UHGV virus genome: UHGV-0213688
Direction: 5' to 3' (one strand)
DNA: 61,436 nucleotides
Source: a virus
The position numbers and the translations under genes were made by a program. Below the pieces are notes generated by a model. It was not told the DNA's origin, did no database searches, and was given only the letters and a program-made list of their open reading frames with translations. Below are positions 3,510 through 26,565 of the stretch, one piece after another; position 1 is the first letter of the stretch, and every line of letters begins with the position of its first letter.

Positions 3510-6161
3510 TTACCAGCGCCCTACTATGACAACACCACCGCCAGATAACGGAACACGAATTCCATTACTATCAATCGTAATACCTCCATTTCCGGTGAAG
3601 CCAAATTGTCCAGCATTAGCAACGATGGTCCCTCTTGCAATTATGTTATTCACATGGAAATATCCGTCTTTAGTAATTGCCCAGCCTTGATCATTACCAT
3701 TCCAGTTATAGGATTGAATAATATTACCTATCTTGGCATTGGTAATTGAGCCGTTCTCAATAAAAGCTTCTTGTAAGAAACTTTGACCGTTTTTAATAGC
3801 AAAAGCAAGCTGTGCTGCTCCCGCTACAGGGTTATAAATAGCGAAGTTGTCCGCACTCACCATGAAGTAAGACTGGAATTGTCCTCCGCTACCTTCGATA
3901 CCTAACTGCATACCTGCAACATATTTGTTACCATTATTGTCAATCTGAACTTTTTGACCCCATTGAGCGGAAAGTTTTCCGTTAAGGTCCGCTAGTGCTT
4001 GTGACTGTCCTTGCACGGTGGCAACAACATTACCCACACTTGTCTGAACAGAATCTATCTTGGAAGCTTGACCTTCTACCACTTTGGATAATTCTGTTAC
4101 ACCGTCATCAACCTTTTGCACAGTCTCCATGAGGTTTTTGAAAGTCTCAGTTTCTTGAAACTCTTTATCCATGATTTCTATAATCTGTGCGGTTTCTGCC
4201 CATACACGAGCTTCAACTTCCACAAACGCGGACGAGCCAAAGGCGTTGATAGTTCTTATATACCAGTAATAAGTGTGGTCATTGAGTAAGTTATTTTTCT
4301 GCCATATAGTTCCCATACCTTCACGGGTAGCATCACGCTCAACAACATCTGTATTAGCAGATGCCAGTTTTGTTTCACCAGACGTCCAGAAATCAAATTG
4401 CGTGCTAACACTAGTCAGCTCTGCAATCTTTGGTATAAGAGTTAAAGAAAAATAACCGTTCTGTATCTCGACAGATGAAGGCGGCGGTGGAGCTTGAATA
4501 TTAAACTCCAGATAAGCTTCCGGTGATATTGCACCGCTGTGAGATACAGCTTGAACGTGCGCAGTATAGGCCCCACGAAGCAGCCCAGTAACACGAACGC
4601 TTTGGCCAGGGACTTGTGCGGTCCAAATAGTAACGCCTCCCTGTCGCACAGCTACGCGGTTATATGCGACTTGCCCCATGTTTGTCCAGGATAATACCCC
4701 CTGTACCACATCACTGATTTGCAATATCTGGTATTGAAGATTTTGAGGTTGAGCAACACCACCACTTGGCAAGTCTACAAGATCCGGTCTGTCCATAGGT
4801 TTACCAATTGCATCGTCCCACATTTCCAGGAAATCTTGACGTAATGTAAGGTTAACACCACCTTTAGGGTTAAAAGACCATTTGGTAACGCGCATTTCAA
4901 CATTCTTCATGCCAATCTGCGTAATGGTAACTTTTACATACATTCCTGGACGGAACTTATAACCCTTCATGTTACAAGGGATTTCAATTGTACGTCCAAC
5001 ACGTTTACGACGTAGAATAATATTAGACAAACGTTGTGCCTGATATTCACTAGTTACAAAACGAAAATCCATGTCCTGAGTTATTTCCCCGCCATCCTTT
5101 TCCACCCATTCCTTAACCACAACTGGGGGGAAGTCTGCTTCAACGTAGTTCTGCTTCGGATCAATAAATGTCCCTGTGATGGTGTTTGTGCGCTCCTTAT
5201 AAGAAGTCTCTGGAACAATCTTAATATCCCCAGCAATACAACTTTCGTCCAGCGTCATTGTTGCTGGACCGTAATATGCGCCAACCAGAAGACCGTGTTT
5301 ACCCGCCACATACGTTAGCTCGCCACCACAAGCTTGCAACATAGCATCCAGAATTTTGGAGGGGGCTTCATCTACTTCAAATTCACCGTTAATTTTATAA
5401 CGGCGCTCTGTAGAACCATCAGCGTTATTGACGTATTCATCACAGATGTTAGCAGCTTCTTTGAACTGGTCCCAGTTAATATCTTCATCTTTTCGCTTTA
5501 AATACGTGCGGAAGTAATCAAGTATTACTAAAGCTGCATTATCGCTAAATATGGTATAGCCAGAACGAGGATCATATACACGGCGTCCTCTTTTAAGAAG
5601 CTTAATGTTTGGCAAACCAGAAGGGAATTTTTCTGCATTAAATTTAAAGCTAATGCGAAGCCATGCAATCCCTTTCCCAATCATATCCTCTTTCCAGGAA
5701 GGGCAATTGCTTAACATGAATGGATCTACAGTCTGACGGTCGTTATGAAATTCCCAAGTAACATACTGTTCGAAAGTCTGTACAAGATCATCCCCAAGCC
5801 AAATATCACCAATCCCCTCCAATGGATGTGAAGCTACAACAAGCGCCATATGCAGGAGTTCGTCTTCGTCTTGATCACCAGGCTGCTCCTCGGCAAACGT
5901 CATAACACCGGAAGCAACCGTTGTCCCGTATACTACTGTTCGGGACGCTGCGGCTGCTCGTAAAACCTGCTTACGCTCTTGTTGACCTTTATAAGCATTA
6001 AAGTTCATATTAGGTGTCTTAGTTAAAAGAGCACCTGCCGCAGTTGCAGCCATACCAATAGCCAAAGCTACGCCCGTAGCAATCCACCCCGCCGCAGCGG
6101 CAGCGGAAGCACCTAAAGCTATTGCTGCTCCAATTATTGCTGGTGGCATTAGACCCTCCAA
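3510..6161 (-). CDS. tail tip / host-specificity protein (central fibre, J-like)
   Basis: 883 aa; last gene of the tape-measure-distal tail set; hydrophobic Ala/Gly-rich N-terminus, repeated beta-rich C-terminal region; 13-nt overlap with upstream gene. Confidence 0.65.
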   Translation of the reverse strand: MEGLMPPAIIGAAIALGASAAAAAGWIATGVALAIGMAATAAGALLTKTPNMNFNAYKGQQERKQVLRAAAASRTVVYGTTVASGVMTFAEEQPGDQDEDELLHMALVVASHPLEGIGDIWLGDDLVQTFEQYVTWEFHNDRQTVDPFMLSNCPSWKEDMIGKGIAWLRISFKFNAEKFPSGLPNIKLLKRGRRVYDPRSGYTIFSDNAALVILDYFRTYLKRKDEDINWDQFKEAANICDEYVNNADGSTERRYKINGEFEVDEAPSKILDAMLQACGGELTYVAGKHGLLVGAYYGPATMTLDESCIAGDIKIVPETSYKERTNTITGTFIDPKQNYVEADFPPVVVKEWVEKDGGEITQDMDFRFVTSEYQAQRLSNIILRRKRVGRTIEIPCNMKGYKFRPGMYVKVTITQIGMKNVEMRVTKWSFNPKGGVNLTLRQDFLEMWDDAIGKPMDRPDLVDLPSGGVAQPQNLQYQILQISDVVQGVLSWTNMGQVAYNRVAVRQGGVTIWTAQVPGQSVRVTGLLRGAYTAHVQAVSHSGAISPEAYLEFNIQAPPPPSSVEIQNGYFSLTLIPKIAELTSVSTQFDFWTSGETKLASANTDVVERDATREGMGTIWQKNNLLNDHTYYWYIRTINAFGSSAFVEVEARVWAETAQIIEIMDKEFQETETFKNLMETVQKVDDGVTELSKVVEGQASKIDSVQTSVGNVVATVQGQSQALADLNGKLSAQWGQKVQIDNNGNKYVAGMQLGIEGSGGQFQSYFMVSADNFAIYNPVAGAAQLAFAIKNGQSFLQEAFIENGSITNAKIGNIIQSYNWNGNDQGWAITKDGYFHVNNIIARGTIVANAGQFGFTGNGGITIDSNGIRVPLSGGGVVIVGRW

Positions 6162-22286: not shown

Positions 22287-22322
22287 GTTCCCTCCAATAA
22301 AAAGGGGCTGACGCCCCATCAG

Positions 22323-22760
22323 TTAAATTACCATTGCAATAGCGCGGTCGATCACGTCATCAGTATAAGGCATCATGCCATTTTCATGACGAATGATTGC
22401 TTTCACCAAACCTGACATTATCGTCTTGTCGAAGACATTAATTGGATCGTTAGGTTGAACACCAATTGCTTTAGCAACAGAGCGAATATACGCTTCCGTA
22501 TCGTTTTCGTTAGGTGGTGCCCAGCGAGCGATAATTTCACGTACAGTGTCGATGTTTTTCTTACCCACATTGGGCAAGCCTTCACGTTTGGTGTAGTTTG
22601 TCAGGACTTTCGCCAGAGCGCGGATGCCGTAGATCGGTTGCGTAAATTGTGCAAAAGATTTGTCGGTCCGCTTATCAACAGGGACCAATCCCTGCCAATT
22701 ATCACCCCAGCGAATGTTACCTGGATTGTTGTTACGAATACCACGAGGTTGAAGCGCCAT
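22323..22760 (-). CDS. putative endolysin (family unassigned)
   Basis: ORF 22323..23030; preferred ATG 22760 (MALQPRGIRNNNPGNIR) with GGAGG 8 nt upstream; sits at the head of holin/spanin cassette. Confidence 0.45.
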   Translation of the reverse strand: MALQPRGIRNNNPGNIRWGDNWQGLVPVDKRTDKSFAQFTQPIYGIRALAKVLTNYTKREGLPNVGKKNIDTVREIIARWAPPNENDTEAYIRSVAKAIGVQPNDPINVFDKTIMSGLVKAIIRHENGMMPYTDDVIDRAIAMVI

Positions 22761-22842
22761 ATCGAGTTCCTCCGCTTGACATGAACCACTCAAGGGTAAC
22801 AGAGAAACTTGATACGGCGCAAGGAGAATTGATCTAAGAAGA

Positions 22843-23103
22843 TTACCCGTCAAACCACTCGCTAATGTACCAGCTAACAAGACCTTTTCCACCTTTATCG
22901 ACCCCGTAGCTGGAGTAAAAAGTGAAGTTATCGGGTTCGTGTTGCAGGATAACCATAAAGTCATGCTGAGTGCTGTCAATAATTGCAATGGCGATTTCCT
23001 CGTTATCTGTGATAAAGATTTCGCCACCAATTACAACATGCGTCCCGTGGTCAACTACCTTGCTGTGATAAGCAGGTGGGATCAGGTGACTGAATGTAGT
23101 CAT
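22843..23103 (-). CDS. hypothetical protein
   Basis: 86 aa ORF packed between HslV-like gene and lysis cassette. Confidence 0.4.
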   Translation of the reverse strand: MTTFSHLIPPAYHSKVVDHGTHVVIGGEIFITDNEEIAIAIIDSTQHDFMVILQHEPDNFTFYSSYGVDKGGKGLVSWYISEWFDG

Positions 23104-23568
23104 TTAAAAACCCTCAAACGATATTGTATCAACGCCAAGAAATGCACATGTGGTATGCTTGATTGCTAGCTCGATAGCTTCGCGTGCGCTTGCACCAGCA
23201 GCCAGAGCTCCCGCAGCAAACACGCAACCACTGCCATCCGACCCCCATCCATCCAGCATGGGTTCGCTCAAAGTACCATCATTATAAATAAAATGGCAAG
23301 TACCTTCCGGAGTAACAGCAAGACCGCAAGTTTGCCCATAATCGTCATCTTTGCTGTAAACTTTAATATCTGGGAACTTAACAGGCTCAGGACTATTAAA
23401 ATAGCGCAACACCTGATCGGTAAATGCTGTAAGACCGCACAAGCCTAGTAAAAACCGTCCACGATGTCCATTTACGCTGTGAACTTTCTTATATGCAGTC
23501 ACAACTTCCCCGCGCATAACTCCACGGTCCGCAGCTAATACTTTTCCATCGTAAGCAATGGTTGTCAT
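23104..23568 (-). CDS. HslV/proteasome-beta-like Ntn-hydrolase peptidase
   Basis: starts MTTIAYDG (Thr after Met); C-terminal GSGxxxAxGA...SAREAIELA resembles HslV GSGGxYAxxAA...SAREIAE. Confidence 0.5.
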   Translation of the reverse strand: MTTIAYDGKVLAADRGVMRGEVVTAYKKVHSVNGHRGRFLLGLCGLTAFTDQVLRYFNSPEPVKFPDIKVYSKDDDYGQTCGLAVTPEGTCHFIYNDGTLSEPMLDGWGSDGSGCVFAAGALAAGASAREAIELAIKHTTCAFLGVDTISFEGF

Positions 23569-23750
23569 TTAATTTTCCTTTGGTCTTGGATAATAACAAT
23601 ACATAAAACAAACAGAATAAGACAGATGCACAGTCCTGTACTTGCAAAGATTCGGATAACCGTGGAAGGTTGTTCGACTACTGTATAGGTATAAAGCCCA
23701 GCGAACATTAACGTCGCAAATAAAAACAATCCGGCGTATAGTTTGGTCAT
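23565..23750 (-). CDS. small membrane protein (two transmembrane helices)
   Basis: 61 aa, two hydrophobic helices. Confidence 0.45.
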   Translation of the reverse strand: MTKLYAGLFLFATLMFAGLYTYTVVEQPSTVIRIFASTGLCICLILFVLCIVIIQDQRKIK

Positions 23751-23812
23751 TGTGTACCCCTCTTATTCGATGGGTACACAATACAATGAAGGATTATCTG
23801 ATAGCAAGGTTT

Positions 23813-24235
23813 TTAATTAAGCACAATCTCAACGTCTTTAACCCAAGTATGAATGATAAATGCTCCTGGCTGTTCAGGATCTTGATCCGGGCCAACGTAG
23901 AACTTTTTACCTTCCCAACCTTTAATTGGGTCATGTACAATAAACTTGTGATTAGTTGTATCGATCACAACCTGATGCAGTGCTCCAGGAACATTGAGAC
24001 TTGGGACAGTGCACAAAAACAAACCACCCATGTATATAGTTTCACGCCCACCGCCTACAGAACAGATGTGGTCAACATTGTTTTGTACTAAATATTCGGA
24101 AATTGTTATTTCCCAGTTATTGTAATATCGATCATGAAATTCCGCAATTACTTCTTCTACAGGTCTATTAAGGATCATCGCCAGACACGCAGAAACGCAT
24201 GTATTCAATGTTGGTTGCTTGACGTGTTTAATCAT
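23813..24235 (-). CDS. papain-like cysteine peptidase, C39-like
   Basis: N-terminal QPTLNTCVSACLAMIL resembles the Q...C...ACLxMI motif of C39 peptidases; downstream His residues. Confidence 0.45.
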   Translation of the reverse strand: MIKHVKQPTLNTCVSACLAMILNRPVEEVIAEFHDRYYNNWEITISEYLVQNNVDHICSVGGGRETIYMGGLFLCTVPSLNVPGALHQVVIDTTNHKFIVHDPIKGWEGKKFYVGPDQDPEQPGAFIIHTWVKDVEIVLN

Positions 24236-24236
24236 C

Positions 24237-24707
24237 TTATGCCTCGTATATGACTTCCGGCTCGTTATTATAAGGACGCAGCAGCAAACGCGCTACCAGC
24301 GCCGTACGCTCGCTCAACCCTTGCGGATGCACAAACCCAACGAACTGGTAGTGACAACCGCGCAGGTGGTGCAAGCTCTTAGCACAATGACACGCTTCCA
24401 AACGAAGTGTCTCGCCCGACTGCCATTTAACCACAATGGTAGAACTCGCGGTCATGTTAATTTCTACGTCACCAATATCTATTTGAAGACGTAAAAGATC
24501 TTCTACAACATTACGGACATAGACAAGGATCTGTGATGTAGGCATAACAATGAGCCCATTCCAATCCTTCCCGCGACCCAATCCGCAATAACGCGCAAAG
24601 TTGGCTATCAACTGCGTTTCTGTAACCTGTTTTACTTCAAACGACTTCTTCAGTTGGCAGTCTTTGGATTCGTCCATTGCATCAACAATAGTTTTAACGT
24701 CAGTCAT
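24237..24707 (-). CDS. hypothetical protein
   Basis: 156 aa ORF, tightly packed. Confidence 0.45.
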   Translation of the reverse strand: MTDVKTIVDAMDESKDCQLKKSFEVKQVTETQLIANFARYCGLGRGKDWNGLIVMPTSQILVYVRNVVEDLLRLQIDIGDVEINMTASSTIVVKWQSGETLRLEACHCAKSLHHLRGCHYQFVGFVHPQGLSERTALVARLLLRPYNNEPEVIYEA

Positions 24708-24710
24708 TAT

Positions 24711-25103
24711 TTACTCCGCTAATGTGTAAGGAATACCGGATGCTTTAATCCGTCTGTACATGTCCATAGTACCAGCTCCGCCCGGAAACACAATAGCGTG
24801 ATCTGGTTTGGGATCAGTATCCAGCATTACTTGATTGCGGTAAGCGCCTGCTTGCGCATTATAAGCTCCCTTGGCGTTATACCGTATCTTGGTATTTGGT
24901 AAGGAAAGATTGTCCCACGGGGCAGGGAACGCTTCTGTCTTAACACCGTTGCGCTCTGCCCAATGTGCGCAAATCCGGTCAACACCGTCAGCGTCACCGT
25001 GACGAAGTGTGGTTATCCTTCTTTGCGTATGCAACTTATCCAGTTGAGCATAAATATACTCTACATGTTTAAAATCACGCCCTCCGGTGACGACTAATAG
25101 CAT
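24711..25103 (-). CDS. SLOG-superfamily protein (DUF2493-like Rossmann fold)
   Basis: VVTGGRDF ... HGDADGVDRxxxxWA ... AGAYRNQVML ... FPGGAGT pattern characteristic of DUF2493/DprA-like SLOG proteins. Confidence 0.5.
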   Translation of the reverse strand: MLLVVTGGRDFKHVEYIYAQLDKLHTQRRITTLRHGDADGVDRICAHWAERNGVKTEAFPAPWDNLSLPNTKIRYNAKGAYNAQAGAYRNQVMLDTDPKPDHAIVFPGGAGTMDMYRRIKASGIPYTLAE

Positions 25104-25166
25104 TATTTCTTCTCCAATGGTTTCAACATTTCATCAATAAAGCCTTTCCAATATTTGATATTTTCT

Positions 25167-25709
25167 TCAATCACCAATAACCTCCTTAAAACGGTTATAC
25201 AAATCACGATAGAACAAAGGACCATATTTGTTACGACGCAGGAAGTCCTTTGCTACAGCTTCCAGAGCTTCGCAGCGATCACGCAACTCTTGAGCCTTCT
25301 TCTCGGTATGCGCCCACACCTCTTCGCTGGTCACACCCGGCGGATTCATTGCACCAACAATTTGACGCAAACGAATATAAGAATCGGATAAAGCGTGTTC
25401 AGCAGCACGCATGTCGACAAGGTTAGTTTCAGCATTTTCGGCACGTTCTTCCTGAGCTCGCCATTCAGCTTCTAACTGGTCAATGCGCATGTCACGATAA
25501 CCCAGCTCCGCAGCAATATCACCTTTGCTGTGCAAGCCTTCGGACGTCATCGCCATAACATGACGGGAGTAATAACCTCCAGCTTGATCCAGTTCCCAAG
25601 CGTCACGCTCACGGTATAAACAATCACACTCCACCAGAATAGGTTCACCCCACGGTTGAACGCCACCACTATCAACCATTCCTGTCCCGTTACATTTTTG
25701 ACAGCTCAT
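25167..25709 (-). CDS. hypothetical protein with N-terminal CxxC...CxC zinc-ribbon-like motif
   Basis: ORF 25167..25721; preferred ATG 25709 (MSCQKCNGTG) with GGTGGAG upstream. Confidence 0.5.
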   Translation of the reverse strand: MSCQKCNGTGMVDSGGVQPWGEPILVECDCLYRERDAWELDQAGGYYSRHVMAMTSEGLHSKGDIAAELGYRDMRIDQLEAEWRAQEERAENAETNLVDMRAAEHALSDSYIRLRQIVGAMNPPGVTSEEVWAHTEKKAQELRDRCEALEAVAKDFLRRNKYGPLFYRDLYNRFKEVIGD

Positions 25710-25711
25710 TA

Positions 25712-25936
25712 TTATCTCCACCTGTTACGGTCATTGCATTTATATTCATACTCGGTAATAACCTGAGGATACATTGGCATAACATTACCTTTTGCATCGT
25801 AGATATATTGCCAAATGATAACCTCCCGGCTATTACCAGTACGTTGACAATTTTGCCGCTCCATTTCTTTGGAGTCTACAATTGCAAATACAACGAAAGC
25901 GGCAATTATAGCGCCTAATATCATGAATATTTTCAT
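25712..25936 (-). CDS. small membrane protein
   Basis: 74 aa, N-terminal hydrophobic helix. Confidence 0.45.
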   Translation of the reverse strand: MKIFMILGAIIAAFVVFAIVDSKEMERQNCQRTGNSREVIIWQYIYDAKGNVMPMYPQVITEYEYKCNDRNRWR

Positions 25937-26235
25937 GGGTTAAGCCTATATTCTTTGATTTCCCTTAGCGTATCACGCCAGTCCATACCTTCAAGGTCAA
26001 CTTCACCGCAGTAGCGAACTCGCCAACCATCAAAGTTTATCAACCATTGTTTCTCCGCTTCATAGAAATCAGGTTCTTCGTCATAGCAATGTACTTTACC
26101 GTCTGCATCTACAGCGATAAAGTTAGCCCAGGGCTCAACAGGGATAGTAAACCCATAATAGTCGGTAAATACTTGCGTCTCCTTGTTAACAGAAGGAATT
26201 TCGTGTCCAGTTTCATCCATTCCTAAATAAAGCAT
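25933..26235 (-). CDS. hypothetical protein, paralogue of 26566..26847
   Basis: shares PVEPWANFIAVDADGKVHCYDEEP vs VVPAWANWLAVDKCEDLYAYEKEP core. Confidence 0.5.
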   Translation of the reverse strand: MLYLGMDETGHEIPSVNKETQVFTDYYGFTIPVEPWANFIAVDADGKVHCYDEEPDFYEAEKQWLINFDGWRVRYCGEVDLEGMDWRDTLREIKEYRLNP

Positions 26236-26286
26236 AACAACCTCCAGATAATTAAGGGCTCCGTAGAGCCCATTATAGATTGATAA

Positions 26287-26565
26287 TTATACTTCTTCCA
26301 AGAAATTGGGACTTACAAGACCATTATAAGGTACTTCATAGGTATCCATATCTTCGTTATACCCGTCTTTACCAAAGGTAACGATAACCGTATGTGGCCA
26401 TCCTTCGTGACAGCTGTATAAATCCTTCACCACCTTATTAACAGTAACAATAGTACCAGCTTTTAACTCCAGAAACTGCGTAACGTCATCCGGAGTATAG
26501 CCTACAGCGCCAATATCTGTGGTTAAACGATACTCTTTACCTTCAACAATATCTTCTACAAACAT
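26287..26565 (-). CDS. hypothetical protein
   Basis: 92 aa ORF between the two paralogues. Confidence 0.45.
   Translation of the reverse strand: MFVEDIVEGKEYRLTTDIGAVGYTPDDVTQFLELKAGTIVTVNKVVKDLYSCHEGWPHTVIVTFGKDGYNEDMDTYEVPYNGLVSPNFLEEV

Follow-up and report, generated by a model that had tools for sequence, protein, structure and literature searches.

Do three enzyme genes that stand close together in a phage genome, two coding for predicted proteases and one for a predicted nucleotide-binding protein, work as a unit, or are they separate accessory genes that share an operon? The question arises in the virus genome UHGV-0213688, analysed as one stretch of 61,436 nucleotides (nt), here called the window. 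An earlier note, made from the sequence alone, had pointed to an unusual enzyme trio at this place, comprising an HslV-like peptidase (23104-23568), a C39-like cysteine peptidase (23813-24235), and a SLOG/DUF2493 protein (24711-25103). The window contains the three open reading frames (ORFs) at exactly these coordinates, and all the motifs that the note had quoted are present in them. All three are on the minus strand, which the note did not give. We find that the trio is not an obligate unit. We propose that it consists of three separately evolved cytoplasmic accessory enzymes in one tight operon, a block of small genes that runs into the endolysin gene, and we give this explanation an even chance of being correct. 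If any two of the enzymes act together, they are the two proteases.

The window phage is placed in Seuratvirus (Queuovirinae), a group of E. coli siphoviruses that includes Seurat, CAjan, SD04, and KS_W4. PHROG profiles match the three ORFs with E-values of 6e-33 (23104-23568), 1e-55 (23813-24235), and 1e-23 (24711-25103). Because of these matches, the Pfam YAcAr match, and the 92-97% DNA identity of the block to the window in about 30 Seuratvirus genomes, we judge the three ORFs to be real, conserved genes. The genes of the block are 1-4 nt apart or overlap (ATGA), with the sole exception of a 62-nt gap before the gene of a 61-amino-acid (aa) protein. The three enzyme genes are interrupted by two others, one for a 156-aa protein and one for this 61-aa protein, which has two predicted membrane helices. 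No signal peptide was found in any of the three enzymes. The trio is less unusual than had been claimed, since public records already name the first gene ('peptidase HslV family', 'protease', 'proteasome subunit'), the second ('cysteine protease'), and relatives of the third ('DprA-like', 'GTP-binding domain', 'phosphoribosyltransferase'), and the proteasome-like family concerned was already described in 2021 (PMC8665760). In GenBank PQ202980 (phage CSP1C), 2221-4481, the product names are displaced by one gene: the 86-aa gene is called 'ATP-dependent protease subunit HslV', the 61-aa gene 'cysteine protease', the C39-like gene 'T3SS chaperone', and the 156-aa gene 'DNA processing protein DprA'. 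Moved back by one gene, these names agree with the present assignments.

The 154-aa product of 23104-23568 begins with MTTIAYDGK and carries GSDGSGCVFAAGALAAGASAREAIELAIKH in its C-terminal half. The Pfam Proteasome family (PF00227) matches it below threshold (16.2 bits, gathering cut-off 22.4) and gives weak matches with 10 of 16 relatives (best E 0.002). A search of the PDB with the single sequence gave no match. A profile of 16 homologs matched HslV with E 1.5e-7 and BPH with 2.7e-7, along with many proteasome beta subunits, and Thr2 is invariant in all 16, which were collected without reference to the N-terminus; these results bear out the earlier view that the protein is HslV/proteasome-like. 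Among 82 distinct relatives from viral contigs, Asp14 and Lys28 are present in every sequence, Gly112 and Gly114 are invariant, and Gly45 is found in all except one (81/82). Thr2, Asp14, Lys28, and Gly45 correspond to Thr1, Asp17, Lys33, and Gly47 of the proteasome and are aligned with the HslV residues in the homolog profile. The predicted structure has the alpha-beta-beta-alpha sandwich fold, with one long helix (residues 47-58) before the strand at 80-85, where HslV has two.

These features are those of the phage proteasome homolog (PPH) family, whose members have about 140 residues, occur in tailed phages and prophages, lack helix H2, and have HslV and BPH as nearest kin (PMC8665760). The window protein resembles the family in its size, in being phage-borne, and in having no propeptide, no helix H2, and no C-terminal S12/H5 elements; no difference from the published description of the family (representative WP_042125023.1) was found. 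Relatives are 141-165 aa long and are found on at least 170 viral contigs. Compared with HslV (ClpQ), which works with the HslU ATPase, the window protein is about 20 residues shorter, lacks helix H2, and stays below the Pfam Proteasome cut-off. Furthermore, no gene for an HslU-like or other AAA+ unfoldase is present in the annotated genome maps of Seurat and KS_W4, or adjoining the PPH gene. We assign the protein as a predicted minimal proteasome homolog without a propeptide, whose Thr1/Asp/Lys/Gly active site appears intact once the initial Met is removed, as it presumably is. Literature searches found no report of a function for phage-encoded proteasome homologs.

The 140-aa product of 23813-24235 carries KQPTLNTCVSACLAMIL. 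The earlier C39-like reading holds in substance: the catalytic set is present on a predicted papain fold that is nearest to C39, and the protein stays below the Pfam threshold for that family. Pfam Peptidase C39 (PF03412) matches residues 3-24 only, with E 0.058 and 13.7 bits (cut-off 22), and the best value across 14 relatives, 0.016, is still below threshold. An exhaustive profile search gave 933 family representatives at 50% identity, of which the best 150 are nearly all 135-160 aa long. In an alignment of 107 relatives (28-42% identity to the query), the sole invariant positions are Gln7, Cys13, His87, Asp102, and Pro103. In the model, as in papain-like enzymes, Cys13 is the start of a helix and His87 is part of a strand, and the Gln (oxyanion), Cys, His, and Asp of the catalytic set come together on the papain fold. 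The nearest solved structures to the predicted fold are C39 double-glycine peptidase domains, and its structural matches among viral proteins are nearly all uncharacterised. Searches of the PDB with the 14- and 107-sequence profiles gave no significant match. The best sub-threshold sequence matches are the YopT-like PfhB2 domain and LahT, so the family cannot be placed in C39 by sequence, and the C39 link comes from the predicted fold and the catalytic residues. We take the protein to belong to a stand-alone papain-fold family that is nearest C39, is catalytically intact as judged by its residues, and falls outside C39 as Pfam defines it.

Unlike the C39 domains of bacteriocin and quorum-peptide ABC exporters (PCAT1, LahT, ComA), the window protein is not fused to a transporter, and no transporter gene is found nearby, either in the window block or on the Seurat map. 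Longer relatives were scanned for fused domains, with no informative result, and near the gene no double-glycine substrate is apparent. The possibility that the enzyme processes the double-glycine leader of a neighbour was considered and rejected: VVIGG in the 86-aa protein (residues 23-27) and FIGG in a long form of the holin are unlike the leader consensus, and the latter lies in a stretch upstream of the annotated holin start. No Pfam model covers this C39-like family, its PHROG entry (phrog_4049) is annotated 'unknown function', and no description of it was found in the literature.

The 130-aa product of 24711-25103 matches phrog_289 and contains the motifs TGGRDF, HGDADGVDR, YRNQVML, and FPGGAGTMDM. 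Its assignment as a DUF2493 SLOG protein is confirmed by Pfam YAcAr (PF10686, formerly DUF2493), with E 3.1e-18 and 65.8 bits against a gathering cut-off of 28.2. The YAcAr (YspA/cpYpsA-related) SLOG family reportedly goes back to Burroughs et al. 2015. It has also been treated by Iyer et al. 2021 (PMC7824862). Among 74 relatives, GGR, GxxGxD, W48, W63, RN, M93, and PGGxGT-D are invariant or nearly so, as are the loop residues GGR 7-9, G36, G40, D42, R89, N90, and G108-T112; because GGR and PGG belonged to the search pattern, their invariance is partly circular. The window protein carries every family-invariant motif, and members of the Seuratvirus clade contain 15 inserted residues at about 67-81. 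With LOG phosphoribohydrolases (PF03641), it has in common PGGxGT and an acidic residue (residues 107-114), and a local match to PF03641 (residues 88-114, E 0.23, 12.1 bits) is weak and fails the threshold of 27. The window protein stands alone, unlike helicase-fused phage YAcAr members such as ICP1 HelB (bioRxiv 10.1101/671271). The single sequence gave no match in the PDB, and weak matches of the profile to BtuF and phage P1 DarA (E 0.043) were treated as chance. The third gene is assigned as a YAcAr SLOG protein with glycine loops of the nucleotide-binding type and a LOG-like PGGxGT-D motif, and it is predicted to bind a nucleotide. Overall, profile hidden Markov model (HMM) searches and structure prediction with active-site inspection upheld the family-level assignments, with the catalytic residues intact.

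Do the three families travel together? The 80 best viral-contig loci each for PPH and SLOG, and all 42 loci found for the C39-like family, were collected, and their flanks (±6 kb for the PPH and SLOG loci) were searched with profile HMMs of all three families. Neither partner is within 6 kb in 79 of the 80 PPH loci, nor in 76 of the 80 SLOG loci, the exceptions to the latter being Seuratvirus relatives and Pantoea phage Vid5. Where lambdoid-type C39-like loci have a full 10 kb downstream (about 24), PPH is found in 4 of them, 3.2-5.1 kb away, with PPH after the lysis genes and the C39-like gene in the nin-like region, that is, in different modules. The families also differ in abundance, tblastn against 50,697 phage records giving 791 matches for SLOG, 197 for the C39-like protein, and 60 for PPH. 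Elsewhere, each family has its own usual neighbours: for SLOG, these are the genes of an SF2 helicase, a sliding (beta) clamp, and a Cas4-like exonuclease; the C39-like gene has replication genes on one side and NinB/NinG on the other; and PPH is found with terminase, portal, capsid, and adaptor genes.

Within Seuratvirus itself, phage ECP2304 (OR880647) keeps the 156-aa, C39-like, 61-aa, and PPH genes and has no SLOG gene. Comparison of ECP2304 3535-3862 with window 24712-25166 shows that unrelated sequence replaces the SLOG gene, and that homology, at 98%, resumes at 24712, the last base of the SLOG stop codon. Because ECP2304 has unrelated sequence in its place, the SLOG gene behaves like an exchangeable cassette. 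The trio as such is not a unit, since most loci of each family lack the others and SLOG is absent from ECP2304 and from the related phages JenP1 and PSTCR4. Thus, the earlier grouping of the three as one unit is not supported. A role of the trio in the phage 7-deazaguanine DNA modification pathway was also considered and rejected: the families are widespread in phages without that pathway, and its genes are located in another part of the genome.

It is the order of the two protease genes that is conserved. In four related genera, the C39-like gene comes before the PPH gene a short way ahead of the lysis genes, and what stands between the two varies. In the window (Seuratvirus), the order is C39-like, 61-aa membrane protein, PPH. 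In Vid5 (Vidquintavirus), it is C39-like, SLOG, PPH, each gene overlapping the next by 4 nt. JenP1 (Nonagvirus) has C39-like (gp79, E 5e-37), two unrelated genes, and PPH (gp82), with no SLOG gene in the block. In Providencia phage PSTCR4 (Craquatrovirus), the C39-like (gp12) and PPH (gp13) genes overlap by 4 nt, and SLOG is again missing from the block. PSTCR4 (NC_071000) has a gene for an HD-superfamily hydrolase at 498-1109, three genes upstream of the pair and thus at about the Seuratvirus SLOG slot; this is another nucleotide-directed enzyme in a similar position.

Could this mean that the three genes form one functional module, in which the C39-like enzyme cuts a target that PPH then degrades, and the SLOG protein senses or makes a controlling nucleotide? 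The points in its favour are the gene order, which four genera retain at about 30-40% identity, the 4-nt overlaps in Vid5 and PSTCR4, an unrelated phage with a Mu-like head in which PPH is directly followed by a YAcAr gene (L005), and the co-occurrence of the two proteases in the 4 lambdoid-type contigs. Against such a module stand the occurrence of each family without the others at most loci, the loss of SLOG from three phages that keep the proteases, and the separation of the two proteases into different modules in the lambdoid phages. Furthermore, the four genera share ancestry and genome architecture, so the synteny may reflect descent alone. We consider a single module of all three unlikely.

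Several of the same observations also weigh against the separate accessory enzymes that we prefer. In Vid5, all three genes are translationally coupled, and the PPH-YAcAr pair of L005 occurs in a phage that is not related. Because of the overlaps in Vid5 and PSTCR4 and this adjacency, some functional coupling is possible, above all between the two proteases. The survey covered the 80 best matches per family and limited flanks, and partners elsewhere in those genomes would be missed. The synteny of the proteases in four genera may itself say little about a functional link, if common descent explains it. Finally, the use of host HslU by PPH, which is part of the mechanism proposed next, is conjecture: helix H2 is missing from PPH, and no ATPase is known for its relatives BPH and Anbu.

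As separate accessory enzymes, the three proteins may act as follows. As with E. coli HslV, Thr1 of PPH would be exposed by host methionine aminopeptidase, and PPH would then form an HslV-like ring that degrades proteins in the infected cytoplasm. We propose that it may use host HslU, because no phage unfoldase was found. The C39-like enzyme would cleave a protein of the host or the phage at specific sites. The SLOG protein would bind or hydrolyse a nucleotide for phage DNA or nucleotide metabolism, a role suggested because the SLOG gene occupies that module in most other phages. A bolder idea, to which we give little credence, is that the C39-like/PPH pair is a minimal viral degradation system, switched on just before lysis, in which the cysteine endopeptidase feeds the compartmentalised threonine peptidase, which in turn uses host HslU; it would remodel or dismantle a specific set of host or phage proteins, with SLOG as a partner in some lineages.

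The usual company of PPH suggests a different role for this protein, namely in morphogenesis: it could remove the scaffold or trim head proteins in phages that have no classical prohead protease, and would then be unrelated in function to the other two genes. Of 83 PPH loci, 37 have a gene for the terminase large subunit within 5 kb, a distance at which genes for portal, capsid, scaffold, and head-tail adaptor proteins are found as well. Near PPH, the capsid systems belong to the P22, T7, and SU10 types, all of which have a scaffold and no protease, and in Seuratvirus there is a gene for a scaffold and none annotated as a prohead protease. No prohead protease is present among the 25 commonest Pfam families in 149 neighbouring proteins, although these are only 25 of the 78 families matched. 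However, P22- and T7-type heads mature without proteolysis, so that no protease is needed for them, and the region before the terminase is a classic site of accessory genes as well. In Seuratvirus, moreover, the lysis cassette parts PPH from the head genes. We regard a morphogenetic role of PPH as highly doubtful.

Do the three proteins instead counter host defences, as the earlier note considered possible? The SLOG protein might sequester or destroy an immune signal nucleotide, for example a cyclic ADP-ribose isomer, and the proteases might cleave host defence proteins. SLOG domains of Thoeris-type host systems bind signals of this kind, and NAD-derived signals are the predicted targets of YAcAr domains in jumbo phages (PMC7824862). 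Genes for a DNA methylase, Mom, a pentapeptide protein, and a PAPS reductase surround the C39-like gene in two other phages, and the block of the window sits in a variable small-gene region. However, SLOG is mostly found in the replication/recombination module and PPH by packaging and head genes, neither of which is an anti-defence island. Furthermore, no PADLOC model matched, and no link to a known anti-defence family was found. NCBIfam searches gave no meaningful match. Literature searches found no functional study of the three genes in Seuratvirus, CAjan, or Vid5. We think a common role in counter-defence distinctly unlikely, and three separate accessory enzymes remain our preferred explanation.

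The other genes of the block are also on the minus strand. Between the SLOG and C39-like genes, 24237-24707 codes for the 156-aa protein, which matches phrog_25149 (3e-109) and has no Pfam match; it was not found in Vid5, JenP1, or PSTCR4. Its only other match, to DpdG, is below threshold (E 0.06, 12.7 bits, cut-off 80) and probably chance. DpdG belongs to bacterial systems of 7-deazaguanine DNA modification, and phages of the Seuratvirus group modify their DNA with 7-deazaguanines. The 61-aa protein with two hydrophobic helices (23565-23750; phrog_22841, 6e-45) was found in Seuratvirus relatives only, and the stop codon of its gene overlaps the PPH start (ATGA). Directly ahead of this gene, in the 62-nt gap, a 9-bp inverted repeat can be read from the sequence at 23751-23780 on the minus strand (tgtgtaccc/gggtacaca), with a 12-nt loop that holds the ribosome-binding site AAGAGG; the repeat ends at the ATG of the 61-aa gene. 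It could control translation of the 61-aa gene and, via the ATGA overlap, of PPH.

Downstream of PPH, the 86-aa protein (22843-23103; phrog_23528, 3e-50) has no Pfam match, and the last gene codes for the 145-aa endolysin (22323-22760; phrog_873, 1.7e-63), which is named endolysin in Seurat and KS_W4. Mechanical ORF calling extends the endolysin to 22323-23030, with 235 aa from a TTG and an overlap with the 86-aa gene; Met91 is where both the annotated homologs and the PHROG match begin. Directly after the endolysin stop codon, a consensus scan found a terminator-like GC hairpin followed by TTTTTATT (22304-22317, minus strand), and Seurat has an annotated terminator at the homologous place. 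The holin, spanins, and small terminase subunit follow downstream. Because this hairpin stands between the endolysin and holin genes, the protease block and endolysin would share a transcript, and the next one would carry the holin.

Upstream of the SLOG gene, 25167-25721 (minus strand) codes for a 184-aa product that has a DnaJ-type zinc-finger motif (CQKCNGTG) at its N-terminus and, after it, a predicted coiled coil. On an unrelated phage contig (L004, 1556-1873), a relative of this product (E 2e-14) is encoded about 4 kb upstream of the C39-like gene. Further upstream, at 26256-26301 (minus strand), in the gap between the genes 26287-26565 and 25933-26235, there is a GC hairpin (GGGCTC tacg GAGCCC) overlapped by a promoter-like site (TTGGAA, 18 nt, TATAAT). 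This site may mark the start of the block transcript. No tRNA genes or Rfam matches were found in the window.

What do these results mean for the Seuratvirus group? The PPH and YAcAr families are already published, and the new point is the conserved C39-like/PPH pair beside the lysis cassette. The findings do not reveal a new mechanism, and counter-defence stays an idea only. Because its catalytic tetrad is perfectly conserved, the C39-like family deserves consideration as a new peptidase family entry. The Seuratvirus group includes phages of E. coli K-12 that are easily handled, among them CAjan and several phages of the BASEL collection, and is convenient for studying the function of a viral proteasome-like protease. 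The pairing of two proteases by the lysis genes in four genera provides a concrete, testable lead.

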